DNA of 64,000 bases from Octopus sinensis (taxonomy: Eukaryota): contig NC_043003.1 in NCBI RefSeq assembly GCF_006345805.1, positions 32,550,001 to 32,614,000 on the forward strand. The letters are read 5' to 3'. Made by a program: the position numbers and the translations under genes. This document shows, piece by piece, positions 17,791 to 63,099 of the stretch. Each line of letters opens with the position of its first letter. Position 1 is the first letter of the stretch. The notes beneath the pieces are model-generated. The model searched no databases and was not told the DNA's origin. It saw only the letters and a list, made by a program, of their open reading frames with translations.

Positions 17791-19907
17791 CTTTTAGAGC
17801 GCCCTCATAGAACTATGTTACTTTGTCGAAAATTTTGTTGTTGATCGATGTGCATGGATTCTCCGACAGATGCTAAATTTTTAATGATTGGTAGTGGTAC
17901 CTCATTTTGTTTTCTTTAAGAGCAGCATTTTCTTGTTATTACCTTTAACATTGTTACCATGGTCGATAAGAGAACATAACCTCAAAAACTACAATACTGC
18001 ATGTAGGACAGATGAAAGAAAATCTACATTAGTGCAAACAGCTGAACATTTATAATCAGACAGTCACTACATGCGTATTAACTCCGAGATCTAAATATCC
18101 TAGGCTAAGCCGATCTTGGATTTAATGAAAAATACGGTAAACATAAACGGACAACAGCAAAATATTAGACTATGCACCTGTATATAAATGGTTCCACAAT
18201 GGGTACGCAATGTATCATAGAAACTGCAACATAGCTACACAAAAGACATTTACTTTTTCAAAACAGAAAAAAACAATTGATCATACAACACTAGGTTATC
18301 AAATTAGTTCGATCAAATAAGACTGACAGTCAATGATACAGTTTCAGCTGTACTAGCAGTGGAAACACAAAACTGTCTACACCAACAGTAACATCTTCAT
18401 TTAAATAAATAGATTTAGATTTACAAAGAGCTTAAATAGGAGTTTAATATAAGTCAACAAGTGAATCCAAAAGTAATTGCTCCGGCCTTCCAGAACTAGA
18501 AACTGAATCTTCCTGAAACCAAACTGTGCCCTCTTGAAAAGAAAGGCTAAATGCATAATGTAGTCCTAGGTTCAATATGTCCGCAAGAAAACAAGTGGTC
18601 ACGATTAAAACAAATTTGCTTATATTGCCTTGGTTAGTGTTGGCATTAAAGCTAAGCAAGAATTCATAATTGCAGCATCCACCAACAAGTGGATTTTCAC
18701 ATAAGCTACGAAGTAGTACAACAAAAATAGGGGGTAGCAAAACTCCTCGAACAAACTCTGTAAAATTATTTTCTGTGGACTTTTATCAAGTTAACATAAA
18801 ATCACATTAAAACAATAGGTAAACATTGCATTTTATTAAGCATAGAATGGTTTTGTGATACTTTCAGATGAATTGCCTCTAACAGGATATGTCTGGAAGT
18901 GGATAAATGTTGTGACTCCAGGTAACACAAGGCAGATGACGGGCACCAAAGAGTAAACTGTTCGTAAAGCTATCTTTCTTCAGTTACGCTTTTAATCGTT
19001 TTTAGAAAAGCATAAATATATCATACTACTGACTACTTCTATTACAGGTACAGTCCATTCAACAGGTTTCCACAAAGTTTCTATCTACTTATAGTTAATC
19101 ATAAAGCTTAGATGACCTCCGAAAGCGACAGAATATTTTTGCGAAGTGCTGTAGAGAAATCGAACTCAAATCATTATGATAGTGAAGCGAACTATTTAAC
19201 CTGGGGGGTCATGACTGCACCAATAATTAAAGTACAATTAAAATGATATACACTTTAATCTTTAAGATAATTTTCTTAATCCGCTAATCATTATCGTATT
19301 AGCTGCTCACCCATAAAATATGGCTTCAACGTATACGCTCAGGTTCGACTTTGCTTTTACTACGCAAAGAGCAGAATAAACGGATTTTTAAAAATTGTAC
19401 AGATTGCTAAATGTATAAAGAGATTAACAGATTAAAGTGAAATCTGACGTTAATGACGACAACGACAACAACGATAACGATGACGACGATGACGATGACG
19501 TTGGTGGTGGTGGTGGTGGTGGTGGTGGTGGTGGTGGTGTTGGCAGTAGTGCTTGACGTCGTCATTGCAGTGCAAGCGCTGACTGTGATTTCCTACATTG
19601 GCACAATTCCATATATTGGCTGTGGGCGGGAATTGGTAATGCACTATATTGGAGAAAATAGTTCAGAGGTGATTTATATTCTTGCATTCTAGGAGGCAAA
19701 AGGCATACTTGACTCCTGTAGAGAAAGAAGAAGAAGGAGGAGGAGGAGGAGAAGAAGAAGAAGGAGGAGGAGGAGGGGAGGGGGGAGAGGAGAAGAAGAA
19801 GAAGAAGAAGAAGAAGAAGAAGAAGAAGAAGAAGAATCCTTTCTACAAGGAGGTAAGGTAAGTGTTTCATTGGTGCTTAATTTATCGACCCCAGAAGGAT
19901 GAAAGTC

Positions 19908-20540
19908 TTCGCAGCCCATTTCTGGGTAAGACTGGCCGCCCTGTTTGCCACTTTGTCCCAGTTTTTATCGGGACGAAATCAGATCCCGAGCAGTTTAACT
20001 GGTCCGTCGGTCCAGCGTCCGACGACCGTCCGATGGCATCGACCTGCCTCTCTAGGAGCCCAAGCGCAAACCCACAGATTTGCAGGCGTTTTATTTTTAG
20101 CCTTTGCAACCGACTCATATCCCTTTAGGATAGTGCCAGCCGTCTCCACTTCGGAGGCATCCGACACCATTACGATGGCATCGTCCGTGTATGCACACAC
20201 TGCCCTTCTGTATCCCACTTCGAAGGGGATGCCTCAACTGTTCCAACTTACGCAGCAGTGGCTCGAGTGTCAATACCTACAGAAGAGGCGAGAACGTGCA
20301 ACCCTGACGGATGGAGCGTGCGATGCCAAACGGTTCCAATGGGTGACTGTTTATCTTGACCACTGAACAGGTGCCGCTGTGCATTGCAGCAATCCAGCAT
20401 TTGAAAATTGCCTGCTTTCAGGACGGCTTCTAAGTAGCGGTAGTCGATGGGCAAAGGTCGATGCTCCAAATTGATCAGAGCACCCCCGAAGCCAGCTTTT
20501 GTCCCAGGCCCTCCCAATGGTGTATCGCATAATAATATCC
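19908..20540 (-). pseudogene. Tx1/L1-clade LINE reverse transcriptase fragment
   Basis: Minus-strand peptides GALINL...IDYRYLEAVLKAG, SIRQGCTFSPLL*VLTLEPLLRKL, CAYTDDAIVMVSD (the YADD motif) and RWTDGPVKLLGI. Confidence 0.88.
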
Positions 20541-22754: not shown

Positions 22755-23682
22755 CCTTGCTTGTCTGATTGAAGAAGGACGAAGGGCAATCATCACCACA
22801 TACTCGGTCGATAGACGGATTGGTTCCATACGTAACAGCAGGTGTTCGACATAACCCCACAAGTCAGCAATGTCCGGTCACTGAACAAGTAAATGCAGAA
22901 CGGTTTCGTCATTCTGCGCGCACCTCGGACAAGCCCGTCTGACAGCACATCTGTGCTTGTAGAATTAATCTTGAACCAGTAACATCCCACAGTAACACTG
23001 CCAGGCCAAGGACAACTGGAAATTATCCATGATAGTTCCCGACCAGAAAGTCCTCCAGAACAGACTAGCCAATTCGTTTTCGTCGGCGCCCAGTATCATC
23101 CCCAGAACGTCGTCTCACTTGCCCGCCACTAATCCTCTATAAATTTCTAAAGCAGAACATCCACCGATCCCATTACCTGATTGGGAGAGGGCTGTGAGCG
23201 CCTGAAGATATTCTAGGTGCCAGGCACCCAGTCTCGGTCTTTTCTTCACCCACGGCTGCAGCTCCGTCAAGGAGACGAACTGCGGAAAGATGAGCCTCAT
23301 AAACGGAGCCTACATACCTTCACCATCCAGAAATGGTTGTAGGTGGCATTAGGAGTCACGGCATACCCATTCCGCCACTCCGAGGATGCTGGCACAGACT
23401 GACTGGCTGGCCAGCCAGGCGATATACGCATTCGCCACCCCTGCCTGACCTTCAGGGGCAGTTTCTTCGCAGCCCATTTCTGAGTAAGACTGGCCCTCCC
23501 AGTTCGCCACTTCGTCCCAGTTTTTATCGGGACGAAATCAGCCCCCGAGCAGTTTAACTGGTCCGTCGATCCAGCGTCCGACGACCGTCCGGTGGCATCG
23601 ACCTGCCTCTCTAGGAGCCCAACCGCAAACCCACAGATTTGCAGGCTTTTTATTTTTAGCCTTTGCAACCGACTCATATCCC
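22755..23682 (-). pseudogene. Tx1/L1-clade LINE fragment (end of RT and post-RT region); same family as 19908-20540
   Basis: 23465-23682 is near-identical to 19908-20124 and continues downstream with KKLPLK and GMP-like motifs. GC-rich. Confidence 0.8.
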
Positions 23683-24280
23683 TGATATGCTGATATTTCA
23701 AACTGAAATGAATAAGAATAAGAACATGTGCAAGCCTTTGAACATAGCGAAGTAATGACCACATTCGTATACCACAAGCATGTCCTGAGTACCAAATACA
23801 TAAAGACAAGCATTCTGGCTATAGTTACGGAGGACTGAAACAAAAATGCATTACACTGTCAGCCATCTTATATCATTTATACATCTCGCACAATCAAGTC
23901 AAACGCATCATACATCCTGATTTCCCTATCGTTGAAGACTGTACATCGGCTAAATGCTCTTTATGGATTAAGTCTTTTTATCATGACGGGCTTCCTTCAG
24001 CTTTGAATTAATGTAAACTTTTACAGAATTCAGTTTTTGATATAATTTTTCAGACGTCCGGGTTAAGTTTCGATACATTCGTATAATTACAGCAATGACG
24101 CTAGTATATTAGAATATAGTATATGTGAAGAAACAGCAAAGCTGGTAACAGATTTTTAATGATCCTATCAATGACCCGATGCGTTGCTGGCGGCAACAGC
24201 AGCAACAAGGGTCTGTCATAAAGCACCAATAATTTTTATTGGCTGCAATGATATTTACTTCCATCATTCATACACACTTA

Positions 24281-30790: not shown

Positions 30791-33700
30791 CGTTAAATGA
30801 AGTTAAATAATGTTATATGAGTGACGTTACATGGCGTTGAATGACGTTAAATGACGATCAAATGATGTGAACTTAAATTACATTAAATGACGTTAAACGA
30901 CGTTAAATGACGTGACGTTAAACGACGTAAAATAACGTTAAATAATGTTACGTTAAATGTCTTTCAATGACGCTACATGACGTGACGTTAAATGGCGTAA
31001 ACTGACGTTAAACTGTCCGACAGCCACCTCCGGACAGAACTCCTCGAAATCCGTTAATTGACGTGGCGTTAAATGACGTTAAATGATGTCATATTAAATG
31101 AAGTTAAATTAGGTGACGTTAAATGACATGACGTTAAATGACGTTAAATGACGTGACGCTAAACGACGTTAAATGACATGACGTTAAATGACGTGATGTA
31201 AAATGATGTTAAATGACGTTATATGGGTGACGTTAAATTACGCTAAATGACGTGACGTTAAATGACGTTAATTGACGTAACGTTAAATGGAGTTGAATAA
31301 AGTTAAATGACATGACGGTAAATGACGTTAAATGACGTCAATTTAACGTCATTCATGTAATGTCATTTAACGTCATTTTATATCACGTCATTTAAAGTCC
31401 TTTAACCTCATGTCATTTAACCTCATGTCTTTTAACGACATTTAGCGTCACGTAACGCATTTAGCGTAATTTAGCGTCACCCATATAACGTCAATTAACG
31501 TCATTTTACATCACGTCATTTCACGTCATTTAAAGTCACGTTATATGAGTGACGTTAAATTACGCTAAATGACGTGACGCTAAATGACCTTAATTGATGT
31601 AAGGTTAAATGGCGTTGAATAAATTTAAATGACGTGACGGTAAATGACGTTAATTTAACGTCACTCATGTAATGTCATTTAACGTCATTTTACATCACGT
31701 CATTTAAGGTCCTTTAACGTCATTTAACGTTACTTAACGTCACGTCATTTAGCGTAATTTAACGTCACCTATATAACGTCATTTAACATCATTTTACATC
31801 ACGTCATTTAACGTCATGTCATTTAACGTCATTTAAGGTCGTTTACCGTCACCTCATTTAAAGGTTATTCAACGCCATTTAACGTTACCTCAATGAACGT
31901 CATTTAACGTCATCCATATAACGTCATTTAACGTCATTTTACATCACGTCATTTAGCGTAATTTATCGCCATTTAACGTCGCTTATCATCACGTTATTTA
32001 ACGTCATTCAACGCCATTTAACGCTACGTCAATTAACGTCATTTAACGTCACGTCATTTAGCGTAGTTTATGTCGCCTAAGTTATGTCTATAGCTTGTCT
32101 ATAGTTCTGTCTATAGTTTTGCCTGTAGTTTTCCATAGAAATTTCAACCGATAGTTTTAGCCTATTGTTTGTCTATACATGATCCATAGTTTTTAATGAT
32201 TTTTCGATAGTTCTGCCTATAGTTTTAGCCTATAGTCTTGTCCATACTTTGTCTATATTTTGCCTATAGATTTAGCCTATACATTCCAGACATTTCGGAC
32301 ATTACCGGCATTCCAGACATTCCGAACATCCCAGCCATACCAGATATTCCAGACATTCCAGTCATTTCACCTGACTGATAAAATACAGTTCGCCAAAAGC
32401 AAGCCACAAAATAACAGACATTTCACAATTCTAGACATCACCGGTATTACAAACATTACGGACATTCCACACATTCCACACATTCCAGAGATTCAAGACA
32501 TTTCACACATTCCAAACATTTCATAGGCATTCCAGACATTCTAAACATTCCAGACATTCCAGACATTCCAGACATACTAGACATTCCAGACATTCCACAT
32601 ATTCCAGGTATTCCAGGCATTCCAGAATGACATTCCAGACATTCCACGCATTCCTGACGTTCCTTTATATGACGTGACAATAATTTCCATTCCATGTCGT
32701 GACAAGACGTGACATTCCATTCTATTCAAAGACGTGAAGTGACGTGACATCCATGACGTTCCAGATATTGAGGTATTTCACACACCCGAGGTATTAAATG
32801 ACGTAACGTTAAATAGCGTTGAATGACTTTAAATGACGTGATGATAAACAACGTTAAATGACGTGATGTAAAATGACGTTAAATGACGTTATATGGGTGA
32901 CGTCATTTAACGTCATTTAACGTCGTTTACCGTCATGTCATTTAACGTCATTCAACGCCATTTCACGTTACGTCAGTTAATGTCATTTAACGTCAGTCAG
33001 GTAATGTCATTTAACGTCATTTTACATCACGTCCTTTAACCTCCTTTAACGTCATTTAACCTCAAGTCGTTTAACGTCATTTAACGTCGCTTACCGTCAA
33101 GTCATTTGGCGTAATTTAACGCAACACATATAACGCAATTTAACGTCATTTTACATCACGTCATTGATCGTCATTTAACGTCATGTCATTTAACGTCATT
33201 TAACGTCGTTTAACGTCCTTTAACGTCCTTTAACGTTATTCAACGCCATTTAACGTAATGTCTATTAACGTCATTTAACGTTACGTCATTTAGCGTAATT
33301 TAACGTCACACATATATAGTCATTTAACGTCATTTTAAATCACGTTATTTAACGTCATTTAACATCATGACATTTAACGTCATTTAACATCCTTTACCGT
33401 CAGGTCATTTAACGTCATTTCACGTCATTTTAGATCACGTCATTTAACGTCATGTCATATAACGTCATTTAATGTCGTTTAACGACACATCATTTAACGT
33501 CACGTAATTTAGGGTAATTTATCGTCACACACATATAATCATTTAACGTCATTTAGCGTCACGTCATTTAACGTCATTTAACGCCATTTAGCGTTGCGTC
33601 AACTAATTTCTTTTAGCGTCACGTCATTTAGCGTAACTAAACGTCACCCATATAACAACATTTAACGTCATTTTACATCACATCATTTAGCGTCATTTAA

Positions 33701-36521
33701 CGTCAAGACATTTACGTATTTTAACGTCACCCATATAACGTAATTTAACATCATGACATTTAACGTCATGTAACGTCGTATACCGTCAAGTCATTTAACG
33801 TCATTTTAAATCACGCCATTTTACGTCATTTAACGTCATTTAACGTCGTTTACCGTCACATCATTTAACGTCACATCATTTAGCGTAACTTAACTTCACC
33901 CATATAGCGTCATATAATGTCATTTTACATCACGTCATTTGACTCCATTTAACGTCATGTCATTTAACGTCATTTAACGTCATTCAACGTCGTTTACCGT
34001 AACGTCATTTAACGTCATTAAACGTCATTTTAAATCACGTCATTTAGCGTCATTTAACTTCAATGTCAGTTAACGTCACTTAACGTTGTTTACCGCCGTA
34101 TCATTTAACGTCATTTAACGTGACGTCATTTAGCGTAATTTAACATCACACATATAAATGACGTCATTTAACGTCATTTAAATCACGTCATTTAACATCA
34201 TTTAGCGTCATTTAACGTCGTTTACCGTCACATCATTTAACGTCATTTAACGTCAAGTCATTTAACGACACACGTATAAAGTCATTTAACGTAATTTTGA
34301 ATCACGTTATTTAATGTCATGTCATTTAACGTCATTTAGCGTCGTTTGACGTCATTCAACGCCATTTAGTGTTACGTCAATTATCGTCATTTAGCTTCAC
34401 GTCATTTAACGTAACTTAACGTCACCAATATAACGTCATTTAACGTCATTTTACATCACGTCATTTAACGTTACTTATCGTCATTTTACATCACGTCATT
34501 TAACGTGACATTTAATATCATTTAACGTCGTTTACTGTCAAGTCATTTAACCTCATTTAATGTCATTTTAAATCACGTCATTTAACGTCAGTTAATGTCA
34601 TATCATTCAACGTTGTTTACCCTCATTTACCGTCACATCATTTAACGTCTTTTAACGTCAAGTCATTTAACGTCATTTAACGTCGTTTACCGTCACGTCA
34701 TTTAACGTCATTTAACGTCACGTCACTAGCGTATTTTAACGTCACACATATAACGTCATTTAACGGCATTTTACATCACGTCATTTAACGTCATGTCATT
34801 TAACGTCATTTAACGTCGTTTACCGTCACATCATTTAACGTCATTTAATGTCATTTTAAATCCCATCATTTAACGTCATTTAGCGTCATGTCAGTTAACG
34901 TCATTTAACGTCGTTTACCGTCACATCATTTAACGTCATTTAGCGTAATTTAACGTCACACATATAAAGATAGTTTACGTCATTTAACGTCACACATATA
35001 AAGATAGTTTACGTCATTTAACGTCATGTCATTAAACATCATTAATGTCGTTTAACGTCATTCAACGCCATTTAACTTTACGTCAATTAGCGTCATTTAG
35101 CGTCACGTCATTTAGTGTAACTTAATGTCACCCATATAACATCATTTAACGTTGTTACATGACGTCATTTAACGTAATTTAACGTCATGACATTTAACCT
35201 CATTTAACGTCGTTTACCGTCACGTCATTTAACGTCATTTAACGTCAATTTAAATCACGTCATTTAACGTCATTTAGCGTCATGTCATGTAACCTCATTT
35301 AACGTCATTAATGTCGTTTACCATCACATCATTTAACGTCACGTCATTCAGCGTAATTTAACGTCACACGTATAAAGTCATTTAATGTCATTTTAAATCA
35401 CGTTCTTTAACGTCATTTAAAGTCATGTCATTTAACGTCCTTTAACGTCGTTTAACGTCATGCAACGTCGTTTACCGTCATGTCATTTAACGTCATTTAA
35501 CGTCACGTCATTTAGCTTAAATTAACGACACCCATATAACGTCATTCAACGTCATTTTACATCACGTCATTTAACTTCGTTTAACGTCATTTAACGTCGT
35601 TACTGTCACGTCATTTAACGTCATTTAACGCCATTTTAAATCATGTCACATAACGTCATTTAACGTCATTTAACGTCGTTTACCGTCACATCATTTAACG
35701 TCACGTTATTTAGCGTAATTTATCGTCACACATATATAGTCATTTAACGTCATTTTAAATCACGTCATTTAACGTTGTTGACCGTCACATCATTTAACGT
35801 CACGTCATTTAGCGTAATTTATCGTCACACATTTATAGTAATTTAACGTCAATTTATATCAAGTCATTTAACGTCATCTCATTTAACGTCATTTAACGTC
35901 ATTCAACGCCTTTTAACGTTACATCAATTAACGTCATTTAACGTCACGTCATTTAGCGTAACTTAACCTCACCCATATAACGTCATTTAACGTCATTTTA
36001 CATCAAGTCATTTAATGACATGACGTTAAATGACGTTAATGACTTGATGTAAAATGACGTTAAATGACGTTATATGGGTGACGTTAAGTTACGCTAAATG
36101 ACGTAACGCTAAATGACGTTAATTGACGTAACGTTAAATGGCGTTGAATGACGTTAAACGACGTTAAATGACTTTAAATGAGGTGACGTTAAATGACGTT
36201 AAACGACGTGATTTAAAATGTCGTTAAATGACTATAAATGTGTGACGATAAATTATGCTAAATGACGTGACGTGAAATGACGTTAAATGATGTGACGGTA
36301 AACGACGTTAAATGACGTGATTTAAAATGACATTAAATGACTATGTATGTGTGACGATAAATTACGCTAAATGACATTTAATGTCATTTAACGTCGTTTA
36401 CCGTCACGTCATTTAACGTTATTTACTGTGACATCATTTAACGTCATTTAACGTCACGTTATTTAGTGTAATTTAACGTTACCCATATAACGTCATTTAA
36501 CGTCATTTTACATCACGTCAC
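30791..36521. repeat. Complex satellite built from CATTTAACGT/AAATGACGTT 10-mers, with higher-order modules and several orientation switches
   Basis: Seen directly. Recurring modules CCCATATAACGT, TTTACATCACGT, TTTACCGTCAC, ATTCAACGCCATTT and AGCGTAATTT. Confidence 0.97.
32085..32770 (+). repeat. CTATAG-core repeats (32085-32280) then GACATTCCA 9-mer array (32281-32770), embedded in the satellite
   Basis: Seen directly. Confidence 0.92.
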
Positions 36522-42479: not shown

Positions 42480-43076
42480 TTTATTTCTTTACTGCCCACA
42501 AGGAGCTACACAGAGAAGGGACAAACAAGGACAACAAACGGATTAAGTCGATTGTATCGACCCCAATGCGTAACTGGTACTTATTTAATCGACCCCGAAA
42601 GGATGAAAGGCAAAGTCGACCTCGGCGGAATTTGAACTCAGAAGGTAGCGGCAGACTAAATACCTATTACTTTACTACCCACAAGGGGCTAAACATAGAG
42701 GGGACAAACAAGGACAACAAACGGACTAAGCCGATTACATCGACCCCAGTACGTAACTGGTACTTAATTTATCGACCCCGAAAGGATGAAAGGCAAAGTC
42801 GACCTCGGCGGAATTTGAACTCAGAACGTAAAGACAAGCGATGTACTTATTTCTTTACTACCCACAAGGAGTTAAATACAGAGAGGACAAACAAAGACAG
42901 ACAAACGGATTAAGTCGATTACATCGACCCCAGTGCGTAACTGGTACTTAATTTATCGACCCCGAAAGGATGAAAGGCAAAGTCGACCTCGGCGGAATTT
43001 GAACTCAGAACATAAAGACTAGCAAAATACCGCTAAGCATTTCGCCCGGCGTACTAACGTTTCTGCGAGCTCGCCC
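42480..43076 (-). mobile_element. SINE family B: one head followed by three tandem body+tail units
   Basis: ATCGACCCCGAAAGGATGAAAGGCAAAGTCGACCTCGGCGGAATTTGAACTCAGAA occurs three times identically, with a period of ~180 bp. Head at ~43020-43076. Confidence 0.9.
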
Positions 43077-46983: not shown

Positions 46984-48688
46984 ATCTGAGGGCAACTGTA
47001 CTTAAATGAAATTTTTGCTGACAGATTATATTAACTGTTAGACTGACATTCATGCTCGTTCCAGATATTTAGGAAGGTGATGGACATAAAATGAATAACT
47101 AGAAAGCGGCACCAAGCAATGATTATTTTTCTCTTTTTGACCTCTACTTAGTTTTATTTTGTAAGGTAGATAGATGTTCGTCACACATCTCACTTCTCAA
47201 ATTGATGAAATCAATAACTGTGGACGTATCAAAGTCTGATTATTTTTGTAAACGATTTAATCAAAAGAGAAAGAGTAGAGCCCATAACAGGTTGTCAGGG
47301 TGTCCTGGATTACTTGGAGGAAGAGAAGAAATTATTCTCAGCGAAGAGGCTAAGTCTGGATGCATGAAACAATGTTTATTGAACTGAAGGCATCCAAAGG
47401 TCACAAGATGGCGTTAGTATCGTACGTACTATTGCTACCCAAGAACGAGAACAGTCCCTCCTATGTGCATCTACGCAATTTCTATCTGCTAAATTTTACA
47501 TATAAGGCTTTAGTCAATTCGAAGATATTGTTGACGATCCTGGTAGACATAGTTGCAAAGCTAACATCATTACCACACGGCAATACCTGCGCTCATAAAG
47601 TGAATTTAGATTGGATTTTATCGACTTTATCTAATTCATTCGCTCAATTCACACAATTTCAATTATCAAACAGTCGCTAATTAGATACATACACAACGCT
47701 TTAATACACTTGGAACATCTGGAGTTGGTCTGGAAAGTTGTATTTAAACAAATACCCCTACACCTTTTCCCACCTCCTTAATGCTTGAGGTGTAAGAAAG
47801 ACGGAGATCTTGATTTTCCTGTGCAAACTACAAAGCAGGAGAGCAAATATAATTTGTTTGTAAAATTTTGTTGAATGGTTGCATAAGGAATAATTATTTC
47901 CTCTTGTGATCACCATTATGCAATTAACATTATTACTTTTGTAGAAGCGAGCGCCGTAGATGCAATTTTGCAGGAAGTGACTATGCTTCTATATTGTAAC
48001 GATCTTTCTTTATCAACTTTTCTAGCTTTGTGATCGATATGACTGTCATTAAATCCTATTCCGTGTACTCATGTAAGATATGGACTTTTTGTGATATCAC
48101 TTGAAAATATTGATTAGAATTTAGATGAAAAAGCAACCTGTCTTTTGAACAGATGTTTCTACGTCACAAATTCAGCTTGCTGAGTTAGTAGCATAATCTG
48201 CGACAGACTTTTGATAACGATTTTTGTGATAAACAGTGTCGTTTGTTAAAGGATACTGACGGCAAATGGGCGTTTGCACAAATCCAGCGATACATTACTA
48301 CAACAAGATATTTTTGTTAGAAGTCAACGGTTTATCACTTTTCTCGCAAGTCAGCGATATATAAGGGGGAAAGATTTATTTACATACACACACATAAACA
48401 CACACACGCTCATACATACATACATACATACATATATACATACATACACACATGCATATGCATGTGGTGTGTGTGTGCGTTCATGTAAATACACGATGGC
48501 CTCCCTCCACTGCTCATTTCCATCTACAAAACTTTATTCACAAACCACCGGTCGTTTCAAGACAAACGTAAAAAGCACTTACTTAAGGGGTGGTGCAAAT
48601 ATATTGAACTTAGAATTAAGCAGTTGTGAAGCAAACTTTTTAATCCACCCTGGAATACCAGCAATTTTGATGGTGATATAGATTTTTA

Positions 48689-49111
48689 ATTGAGATGGCA
48701 AATATACCTCACATTGTCGTGCAGTTACTGTTTATACCTCGTTCAGAGATTTATTATTGCTTGCATATACTTTTTCAAGATCAGTGACGAAAAGTTACTG
48801 GAAAAAGGATATAAGTATTTGCATTGGGACTCCTTTCATCGAAAACCGGTGATTGTCGTACGCTGATGACGGGTCAATACCTAGAAACTGCAATTCGTGC
48901 GTATCACTTAGGTTGACGAGGGAAGGATGACCTCCCTTTGCAACTACCTTAGGGCACAGAAAGTGTGTCTATAGCCAGCTGGAGGAGATATTCTCCTGGG
49001 GTTACAAGCTACAGTAACATCCACCCTTAGTGGTTAGCCATATTGAGATGGCAAATATACCTCACATTGTCGTGCAGTTACTGTTTATACTTCGTTCAGA
49101 GATTTATTATT
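48689..49111 (+). mobile_element. Retrozyme-like non-coding element: 1.2 copies of a 353-bp hammerhead-containing monomer
   Basis: 70-bp direct repeat (48689-48758 and 49042-49111, 1 mismatch). Hammerhead at 48849-48907. Homologous to 62211-62833. Confidence 0.8.
48849..48907 (+). ncRNA. Type I hammerhead ribozyme motif, probably partly decayed
   Basis: GTGAT.TGT.CGTACG-CTGATGA-CGGGT(CAAT)ACCTA-GAAA-CTGCAA-TT-CGTGCG.T.ATCAC. Stem III is one change away from the palindrome ACTGCAGT. Confidence 0.7.
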
Positions 49112-49804
49112 ACAGATTTTGAATTGTTTTCATAGATACAGAGGCAAAAATGTCAGAAAGACAGAAGGAAAGAAGGAAATATTTAAAGAAAGTAAAAGAT
49201 ATACACAAGAAAAAAATGGCTCAAATCTCTTTATTTAGACCTTTCAGTCGTTATCATCTCTTCAATTTTTCAAACACAGTGTATCTAGAGGTATGTTATC
49301 TGAAGTTACCTTTTTGACTGGGATTTTTCTTTTTTTTCTTTTTTTAAGATAATATCGTATAATTTGGAGATAGTTTAGCTGTTAATCCCTTCAAGTGATG
49401 TGACCACATAGAAGTTTTCTTTTTATCTCGTGTTTGATGATGGTGCTGCTGTTGTTGTTATTTAGCTCCAGGTCAGCCTTAGTTGAACAGATCTGTAGTC
49501 GAAGACGCTCCCGTTTGCCTAGATTTTTCCCCCATACACTTACATCCCGTCACTACTCCACCCCGAAACACAACACATAATTAATGCCTTTCTTTTCCGA
49601 CAATGAATTGCCAGCAGGTTGTACAATCTTTTAGAGGCTTTTTAGTTTCTCTGTTGACAAATTGTAGATAGACACAAGGAAATAGGCATGGAAAAGAAAT
49701 TACGGAAACAAATAAACGACACACAGAGAGAAAGAAGGAAACAAACTGAGATAGCAGATAAAATCAGAGAATATATTAGGCGTTTCTAGAAAATGGATGT
49801 AAGC

Positions 49805-62210: not shown

Positions 62211-62833
62211 ATATAAGGTATATTAGCCAACTGAATATGGCTAGGGACAGGGCAGGGTGGTGGGGGTGTCACTGTTGCATTTAGCCCCAGGCGAACATCA
62301 ACGTCACCAGATAGGCCGACGCCATCACGCGGCTCCCTCTATCTTGCAAAGGGAGATCATCCACCAAGAAGCGGATACCACACGGACCTAGGTTTCAAGG
62401 TGTATTGCCTATTATCAACGTGTGGTAGGCATCGCTTCTCGATGAACGACCAACCGTGCAAGATATATATAAGGATTTTCAAGTAAATACATTTACTGAT
62501 TTCGAAAATCTGTTCGACAGCAATAATAATTCTCTAAATGAGATATAGACAGTGACTGCTCCATAATATAAGGGATATTAGCCAACTGAATATGGCTAGG
62601 GACAGGGCAGGTCCGTGTGTGGTATCCGCTTCTTGGTGGATGATCTCCCTTTGCAAGATAGAGGACGCCGTGATGGCGTCGGCCTATCTGGTGACGTTGA
62701 TGTTCGCCTGGGGCTAAATGCAACAGTGACACCCCCACCACCCTGCCCTGTCCCTAGCCATATTCAGTTGGCTAATATCCCTTATATTATGGAGCAGTCA
62801 CTGTCTATATCTCATTTAGAGAATTATTATTGC
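62211..62833. mobile_element. Retrozyme-like element: 1.1 copies of a 355-bp monomer on the minus strand, fused head-to-head to a partial plus-strand copy
   Basis: TATTAGCCAACTG at 62221 and 62576 (period 355). 62520-62610 is inverted to 62742-62832. 62211-62389 is inverted to 62609-62787. Confidence 0.82.
62367..62439 (-). ncRNA. Type I hammerhead ribozyme with U3-A8 core variant
   Basis: AGAAGCG.ATGCC.TACCACACG-TTGATAA-TAGG(CAATACA)CCTT-GAAA-CCTAGG-TC-CGTGTGGTA.TC.CGCTTCT. Perfect 9-bp stem I, palindromic stem III ACCTAGGT, GUC triplet. Confidence 0.8.
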
Positions 62834-63099
62834 TATATATATATGTATTTACATATACACATATATATATTTATATAATACATACATATTCATATATTTA
62901 TATCTAATATATATATATATGTGTGTATAAGTGTCTGTACACACACTCACACACGTACACACACATGATATATTCCAGTTGTTTTGAGATGTTTTTTAGA
63001 CGAGGCAATTATAACTATACCAATTTATTTTAATTTTAGTATATCATTACTATACATCAAATAAACTATTCTGCTAACTTTTCTTCTTGAAGGAGAGGC

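Follow-up and report, generated by a model that had tools for sequence, protein, structure and literature searches.

A decayed copy of a 353-bp hammerhead retrozyme in the Octopus sinensis genome, probably written by a borrowed Penelope-type enzyme

In a 64,000-nucleotide stretch of the Octopus sinensis genome (NC_043003.1, positions 32,550,001 to 32,614,000; here called the window), a sequence-only reading had singled out a non-coding insert of 423 bp with 70-bp terminal direct repeats, a period of 353 bp, and a type I hammerhead in its middle. This inventory was confirmed by sequence comparison. The insert occupies positions 48689 to 49111 of the plus strand, and its repeats (48689 to 48758 and 49042 to 49111, plus strand) are identical at 69 of 70 positions (99%; E value of 4.5e-30 when the repeat is searched by BLAST within the window), with a lone C/T mismatch at 48738/49091. 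With the unit position u defined as the window position minus 48688, it is a one-armed insertion of 1.2 units running from u1 to u70 of the next lap. The first repeat copy is the read-through lap, and the second contains an end common to the family, A (u25-27, 49066 to 49068), and stops at another, B (u66-81). The unit has a GC content of 0.42 and lacks coding capacity, the longest ATG frames read round it being 30 amino acids on the plus strand and 14 on the minus strand, and its predicted 353-nt fold beats 100 of 100 shuffles (z of -3.9). What the earlier reading had overlooked is a 16-bp target duplication (48677 to 48692 and 49111 to 49126, plus strand, 14 of 16 identical; the score threshold is attained by none of 119 mismatched flank pairs). 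This duplication runs four bases into the start of the element. The last four bases of its left copy, ATTG, are also u1 to u4, and the 5' end was probably joined to the target through this microhomology. Because the joining fixed the 5' end, the repeat length equals end B minus a chance 5' end; it is accidental, and the repeat is not a designed terminus. Elsewhere in the window, a degenerate satellite of 10-bp units (GTCATTTAAC-type) that alternates in orientation covers about 6 kb (30791 to 36505), and arrays of 46, 9, 11, and 13 bp flank it in a roughly mirrored arrangement; a 183-bp unit, which we take to be an octopus SINE, is repeated three times in tandem at 42481 to 43030.

The hammerhead, with an extended stem I, lies at 48848 to 48908 (plus strand), with predicted cleavage after 48895. 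Its parts can be read from the sequence: CGTACG (48857 to 48862) pairs with CGTGCG (48896 to 48901) in stem I, the core is CTGATGA (48863 to 48869) and GAAA (48884 to 48887), stem II is GGGT/ACCT, and C-TGCA-A and the triplet ATT (48893 to 48895) follow. An Rfam search gave no match in the window at the gathering score and four chance matches near the insert, and in the free-energy fold of a 76-nt region, stem I is formed and the canonical three-way junction is absent (z of -1.5). The call therefore rests on the alignment with the family, in which 136 hammerheads were compared. The triplet is GTC in 125 of them and ATT in one, the window copy, and the core is intact in 95. Stem II is AGGT/ACCT in 44, GGGT/ACCC in 42, and GGGT/ACCT in 8, and covaries with compensation, possibly from one event. 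The basal pair of stem II is a C/A mismatch in 128 of the 136; by this alignment it is family-wide and not decay, and, being non-canonical, it makes the predicted ribozyme activity uncertain. Helix III of the family consists of one C-G pair over the palindrome CTGCAG. Two changes private to the window copy, G to A at 48893 and C to T at 48895, break both the single pair and the palindrome, and the alignment marks both as decay; the earlier suspicion of decay, based on an AUU triplet and a stem III mismatch, was well placed. Among 124 helix III motifs, two of which look like chance matches, 108 are palindromic, and CTCGAG, CCTAGG, CCCGGG, and CTATAG occur once each. The predicted dimer duplex has -12.5 kcal/mol in an intact natural copy versus -4.5 in the window copy. 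Amphibian motifs of the same helix III shape are described as cleaving as dimers (PMC7229834), and eight of nine Xenopus retrozymes are reported without cleavage in vitro. The window copy is predicted to have lost cleavage.

Sequence comparison places the insert in a dispersed family of non-LTR retrozymes with a 353-bp unit. There are 4,896 candidate relatives in the 2.72-Gb genome, of which 40 were scored, with 90 to 95% identity. A 19-nt family motif has 912 exact matches (control, 0), and with a hammerhead in each unit, the idea of a retrozyme-like family was borne out. The unit is non-coding and within 150 to 450 bp, has less than 50% GC, and carries one type I hammerhead, and the family includes tandem copies with at least two; the terminal redundancy is variable, unlike a fixed LTR, and target duplications exceed 4 bp. 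A plant-type LTR retrozyme was ruled out by the type I motif (not type III), one per unit, and the modal target duplication of 12 bp (not 4).

One hundred places listed from C1 and C2:1-110 Mb yielded 71 insertions after the duplicate L058 was dropped; one more pair may be an old duplicate. Forty insertions are two-armed, with the arms head to head, and 31 are one-armed. The 3' ends fall at two fixed sites about 45 nt apart, A and B, the position of B being blurred by AT-rich flanks, while the 5' ends are scattered. The two-armed insertions comprise 34 A+B, one A+A, no B+B, and five with one unclassified end, and the one-armed insertions end at B in 18 cases and at A in 13; by its end, the window copy is a one-armed B copy. 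Microsatellites are abutted by 38 of the 71. Target duplications of 8 to 17 bp (mode, 12 bp) were found in 23 of the 33 insertions away from microsatellites and in 0 of 119 mismatched flank pairs. The proposed pattern of fixed 3' ends with variable 5' ends beyond one unit was borne out: the 5' ends vary and 19 of 98 arms exceed one unit, with the refinement that the fixed 3' ends number two. Tandem copies reach 5.4 units at L107 and more than 2 at L187, L098, and L189; the window copy has a single hammerhead. At L107 (G000:C30:13628679-13630974), the units of the long arm are about 99% alike, the opposite arm differs by 4 to 5%, both arms end at A, and the terminal pieces share a private base. 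A second, diverged insertion lies in the window itself at 62216 to 62834, two-armed (A+B), in a TA microsatellite and 72 to 79% like the unit; its hammerhead (62378 to 62424, minus strand) has a TTGATAA core and a CCTAGG palindrome. At L192 (G000:C1318), ten tandem copies of u151 to u201, a segment that runs from the putative +1 to just short of the cleavage site, lie between the arms.

The template was examined through the cleavage site and through haplotypes. Of the 98 arms, 41 reach the cleavage site, and the two that score as stopping within 3 nt of it, no more than the mean of 3.8% per 7 nt, both continue in family letters; apparent stops at u208 were partly an artefact of using the mutated window copy as the reference. 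The earlier claim that copying read straight through the site and beyond one unit is supported, and the missing pile-up of ends excludes a cut linear monomer as the main template. We compared 36 non-CpG diagnostic sites in 222 arms from 156 loci, partly selected for length, leaving out arms below 84% identity or with unclassified ends, u254-263, and the duplicates L057, L058, L217, L218, and L264, with L107 kept outside the lap totals. Consecutive laps carry different bases at 65 of 695 sites, versus 35.7% between insertions, and lap-matched arms do so at 16 of 120 sites 5' of the cleavage site versus 22 of 492 3' of it (P = 0.001). Rare variants are common to laps in 24 of 343 cases and to arms in 11 of 184, about eightfold more than between insertions (0.8%). 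The low disagreement and the shared rare variants imply that most laps repeat one source unit, which is compatible with a circle or a homogeneous array. The laps of the window copy are concordant (0 of 7 diagnostic and 1 of 53 other sites differ) and by themselves do not decide between circle and tandem.

Some laps are mosaic. Among 29 long laps (at least 10 sites), 24 keep one haplotype, versus 26% of random pairs, and five differ at three or more diagnostic sites; a two-class estimate puts mosaic laps near 16%. Laps of different haplotypes occur at L012, L020, L027 (with a switch apparently between u284 and u332), L189, and L208, and arms of different haplotypes at L089, L096, and L245. At L022, L107, L199, and L208, the two terminal pieces have in common a derived base that is missing from the inner lap. 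Terminal pieces agree with each other against the inner lap at 55 of 127 sites, where 33% would be expected (P = 0.012; the sites are not independent, and nine come from one locus). A tie of the mosaic breaks to the cleavage site was not supported, the mean r2 being 0.44 for pairs not spanning it and 0.42 for pairs spanning it (146 site pairs). The mosaics can arise from hetero-oligomers, template switches, or later gene conversion, and together with the sharing between terminal pieces, they mean that a lone circle of one unit cannot by itself account for the copies.

Upstream of the hammerhead, the unit has what may be an snRNA-type promoter. In all 20 of the snRNA genes examined in this genome (12 U2 and 8 U1), which represent about four upstream types rather than 20 independent cases, one ATCAGT occurs within 200 nt, at -57 to -61. 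The unit has a single ATCAGT, a candidate proximal sequence element (48780 to 48785, plus strand), at -58 from ATCG at u150 (48838), the same four letters that begin U2. The chance of finding ATCAGT in a six-position window is 0.0018, and the motif keeps about this offset in diverged relatives (-57 in the copy at 62216 to 62834). On the minus strand at 48817 to 48824 lies ATGCAAAT, which also occurs upstream of the U1 genes examined and which we take to be of the octamer type, and just past end B lies the sole sense-strand run of at least four T residues in the unit (48771 to 48775, plus strand), a possible terminator. Motif and spacing thus suggest a transcription start at u150. Three insertions without a LINE (L080, L088, and L322) begin exactly there, and 5' ends show no significant pile-up at this point, the rate at u146-150 being equal to the average (about 4 of 88 non-LINE arms). 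The stretch u150-178 is present at 140 places; in 83 of the first 100, the copy continues beyond u150 by more than 20 nt.

The same position is entered by a LINE. At L100 (G000:C2:75365300-75373700), a unit is split by a 5-kb LINE with ORF1, APE, RT, and zinc domains (PF03372, PF00078 [weak], and PF13966), whose best solved relative is LINE-1 ORF2. A motif from its 3' end has 50 matches, of which 30 loci were examined and 29 are distinct. The LINE 3' end runs into a hammerhead unit at u147-150 in 25 of them, into target bases and then another LINE in three, and is interrupted, with a unit behind, in one. The LINE occupies one unit site in 29 of 29 places (L100, L108-L137, and L215-L222), with target duplications of 14 to 16 bp and tandem re-insertion at the duplicated target. 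The host units are 74 to 93% like the window unit, so the copies are separate insertions, and since the LINE splits the unit with 14 to 16 bp duplicated on both sides, the unit is its target. Eight further 5' junctions lie at u164-166 (three may be one duplicated event), and a second LINE family (L324 and L373), with a protein 82 to 87% alike, uses the same site. With its ORF1, APE-RT-zinc ORF2, and target specificity, the LINE presumably belongs to the Tx1 clade. Its target is likely the putative +1 of the retrozyme; in the window copy, this site (48838 to 48854, plus strand) is empty. At L279:2325-2760, some 0.6 kb downstream of a U2 gene, 17 bases copied from the 5' end of U1 are followed immediately by a related LINE, and decayed ORF2 fragments 34 to 43% identical to the protein of the targeting LINE lie in the window at 19889 to 20405 and 22890 to 23693 (minus strand). 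Two-armed Penelope-style insertions at L124/L125 and L115 have arms bearing the LINE 3' end, which indicates that the copying enzyme also moved LINE-retrozyme chimeras.

The insertion footprint points to a Penelope-type enzyme as the mobilizer. Insertions of Penelope-like elements (PLEs) are described with tails, inverted copies truncated at the 5' end, and a preference for microsatellites (bioRxiv 10.1101/2021.04.23.441226), and PLE insertion in vitro is described with two internal RT starts, nicking and extension of both DNA strands, and dispensable hammerhead cleavage (PMC11167929). The octopus family has the two 3' ends, the inverted 5'-truncated arm, and the microsatellite bias, its unit holds no RT/GIY-YIG open reading frame, and it seems to behave like a PLE passenger. 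As two-armed copies pair A with B, each arm would use a different RT start site. The genome contains intact PLE frames of 775 to 781 amino acids that encode RT and GIY-YIG; young families (L168-L172 and L175) have open frames of 781 and 775 amino acids. In the 781-amino-acid family, a minimal hammerhead-like motif, unrelated to that of the unit, lies about 70 nt upstream of the 3' end. None of the PLE families sampled matches the unit in sequence.

Could an autonomous Penelope element have this unit as its pLTR, or the adjoining LINE have it as its 3' end, with the copies as truncations? Xenopus retrozymes are described as sister to pLTRs, and those 25 of 29 LINE 3' ends do continue straight into a unit, but no coding DNA lies between units joined head to tail, and the LINE inserts with a duplication on both sides into units 74 to 93% like that of the window. 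A search of 47 GIY-YIG loci (150 of 5,029 candidates scored) yielded no PLE with this unit as its pLTR, and at 204 retrozyme loci no Penelope frame is joined to a unit; PLE fragments near four of the 204 are unjoined to any 5' end, and 91 upstream flanks share only LINE ends, duplicates, and one unrelated pair. The sequence-only reading had named the pLTR of a long coding element as an outcome that would overturn it; these counts go the other way, and we hold this origin to be very unlikely. Unit-like pieces beside PLEs at L175, L164, L014, and L018 were rejected as links, being separated by microsatellite or other DNA, and the lead at L018 ended in an unrelated repeat. The look of the window copy alone would also allow its 70-bp repeat to be a local host duplication or an LTR-like terminus unrelated to copying, the host duplication being another outcome named in advance. 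The repeat is family sequence, and among copies the redundancy ranges from a few bases to more than 4 units, always ending at A or B, which leaves this reading with next to no probability.

More weight goes to the proposal that the same family was copied in the same Penelope-type way from uncut linear transcripts of long tandem arrays, with no circles and the ribozyme as a passenger. The mosaic laps and the lap-matched sharing between arms agree with it, a 5.4-unit array exists at L107, and PAc is described as using unprocessed RNA in vitro (PMC11167929). Long arrays are rare in the assembly, though: among the best 40 matches to a three-unit query, one place spans all three units and the next reach about 2.3, a scarcity that favors circles unless arrays are unassembled. 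Short sources would in turn predict a pile-up of 5' ends at the start, against the roughly 4 of 88 arms that stop at u146-150, and the constancy of 24 of the 29 long laps also tells against it. We regard the array template as a possible but less likely source. At the other extreme, copying of each insertion from one monomeric circular RNA fits the concordance of most laps, those of the window copy included, and the missing stop at the cleavage site. Laps and arms of different haplotypes and the bases shared by terminal pieces contradict it as the sole route unless gene conversion after insertion explains the mosaics, and we consider it improbable.

In the compared accounts, metazoan non-LTR retrozymes of coral, mussel, and axolotl (PMC7229834; bioRxiv 10.64898/2026.07.22.740005) have the same non-coding unit of 150 to 450 bp with one type I hammerhead, the same range from monomers to multimers, target duplications above 4 bp, highly self-paired units, and co-occurring PLEs, and axolotl HHR_Amex1 has the same single-pair helix III with a palindromic tetraloop. 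In contrast, the octopus family is mostly dispersed, 5' truncated, and two-armed rather than arrayed, and its helix II has the basal C/A; we met no description of a two-end pattern, a promoter motif, or a targeting LINE in those accounts. Endonuclease-bearing PLEs (PMC11167929; bioRxiv 10.1101/2021.04.23.441226) share the two 3' ends a tail apart, the inverted 5'-truncated arm, the AT-rich or microsatellite targets, and a hammerhead upstream of the RT start sites, whereas the retrozyme has no open reading frame and a tail of about 45 to 55 nt, versus 30 to 40 in PLEs. Newt satellite 2 (Coats 1994, cited in PMC2220036) is likewise a hammerhead repeat with an internal snRNA-gene-type promoter motif; in the octopus, the promoter is read from motif and spacing. 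For the LINE, Tx1 in Tx1D, Keno in U2, and Tx1-Mar in Mariner-N4 (PMC4494074) are comparable APE-RT LINEs fixed to one repeat site, with the same target duplications of 14 to 16 bp and tandem re-insertion at the duplicated target; the octopus LINE, likened to them by domains and targeting rather than by a tree, differs in having as its target a retrozyme at its putative +1. A vertebrate retrozyme survey (bioRxiv 10.64898/2026.07.22.740005) lists three insects and one anthozoan as its invertebrates. We found no paper on cephalopod retrozymes or on Tx1 LINEs together with retrozymes among those searched; the family or the LINE may be catalogued in subscription journals, Repbase, or supplements.

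We think it probable that the insert is a decayed copy of the 353-bp hammerhead repeat, likely written by a borrowed Penelope-type RT/endonuclease that started at the downstream site and copied 423 nt, likely on a circle or a multimer without a nearby 5' end. The internal snRNA-type promoter (ATCAGT at -58, start ATCG at u150) would transcribe tandem copies, whose hammerheads would cut as dimers via the palindromic helix III, and monomers or oligomers would be ligated into circles. AT-rich or microsatellite target DNA would be nicked at staggered positions about 12 bp apart, a spacing seen in the genomic pattern, and each nick would prime synthesis by the putative enzyme, one at A and the other at B, giving head-to-head arms; one-armed copies such as that in the window would have kept one of the two products. 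Synthesis continues through the cleavage site and the putative start, with no pile-up at either, and about a fifth of the arms are longer than one unit; since about one in six laps is not of one haplotype, hetero-oligomers or template switches may contribute. In the window copy, joining to the target by the 4-base microhomology would have fixed the 70-bp repeat, and two later mutations broke helix III, with a predicted loss of cleavage; having a single hammerhead, this copy could not release a monomer. A bolder version, which we put forward tentatively and at somewhat less than even chances, is that the unit mimics an snRNA gene (PSE-like motif, ATCG start, dimeric hammerhead, and two RT starts) and makes circles, some of them mixed, that a Penelope dimer copies from two sites at once, while L1-type LINEs home to its +1.

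The window copy itself is an ordinary decayed family member. For animal retrozymes, PLE mobilization and circular templates have been proposed, not shown, in the accounts compared (PMC7229834; bioRxiv 10.64898/2026.07.22.740005). This family leaves a footprint that can be counted, namely, exact RT starts, opposite-strand pairing of A with B (34 of 35 classifiable pairs), and read-through of the cleavage site, and the lap haplotypes bound how often the template changes within a lap. What is new is this bound against a strict one-unit circle, together with a promoter motif tested directly in the U1 and U2 genes of the same genome. The intact PLE frames of this genome and the published in vitro PLE assay make the model directly testable. 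The promoter motif would offer a route for making an RNA that looks promoter-less, and the LINE adds a target class. If the snRNA-mimic reading is true, the LINE, for which we found no such target in print, would make this a parasite of a parasite of a parasite.
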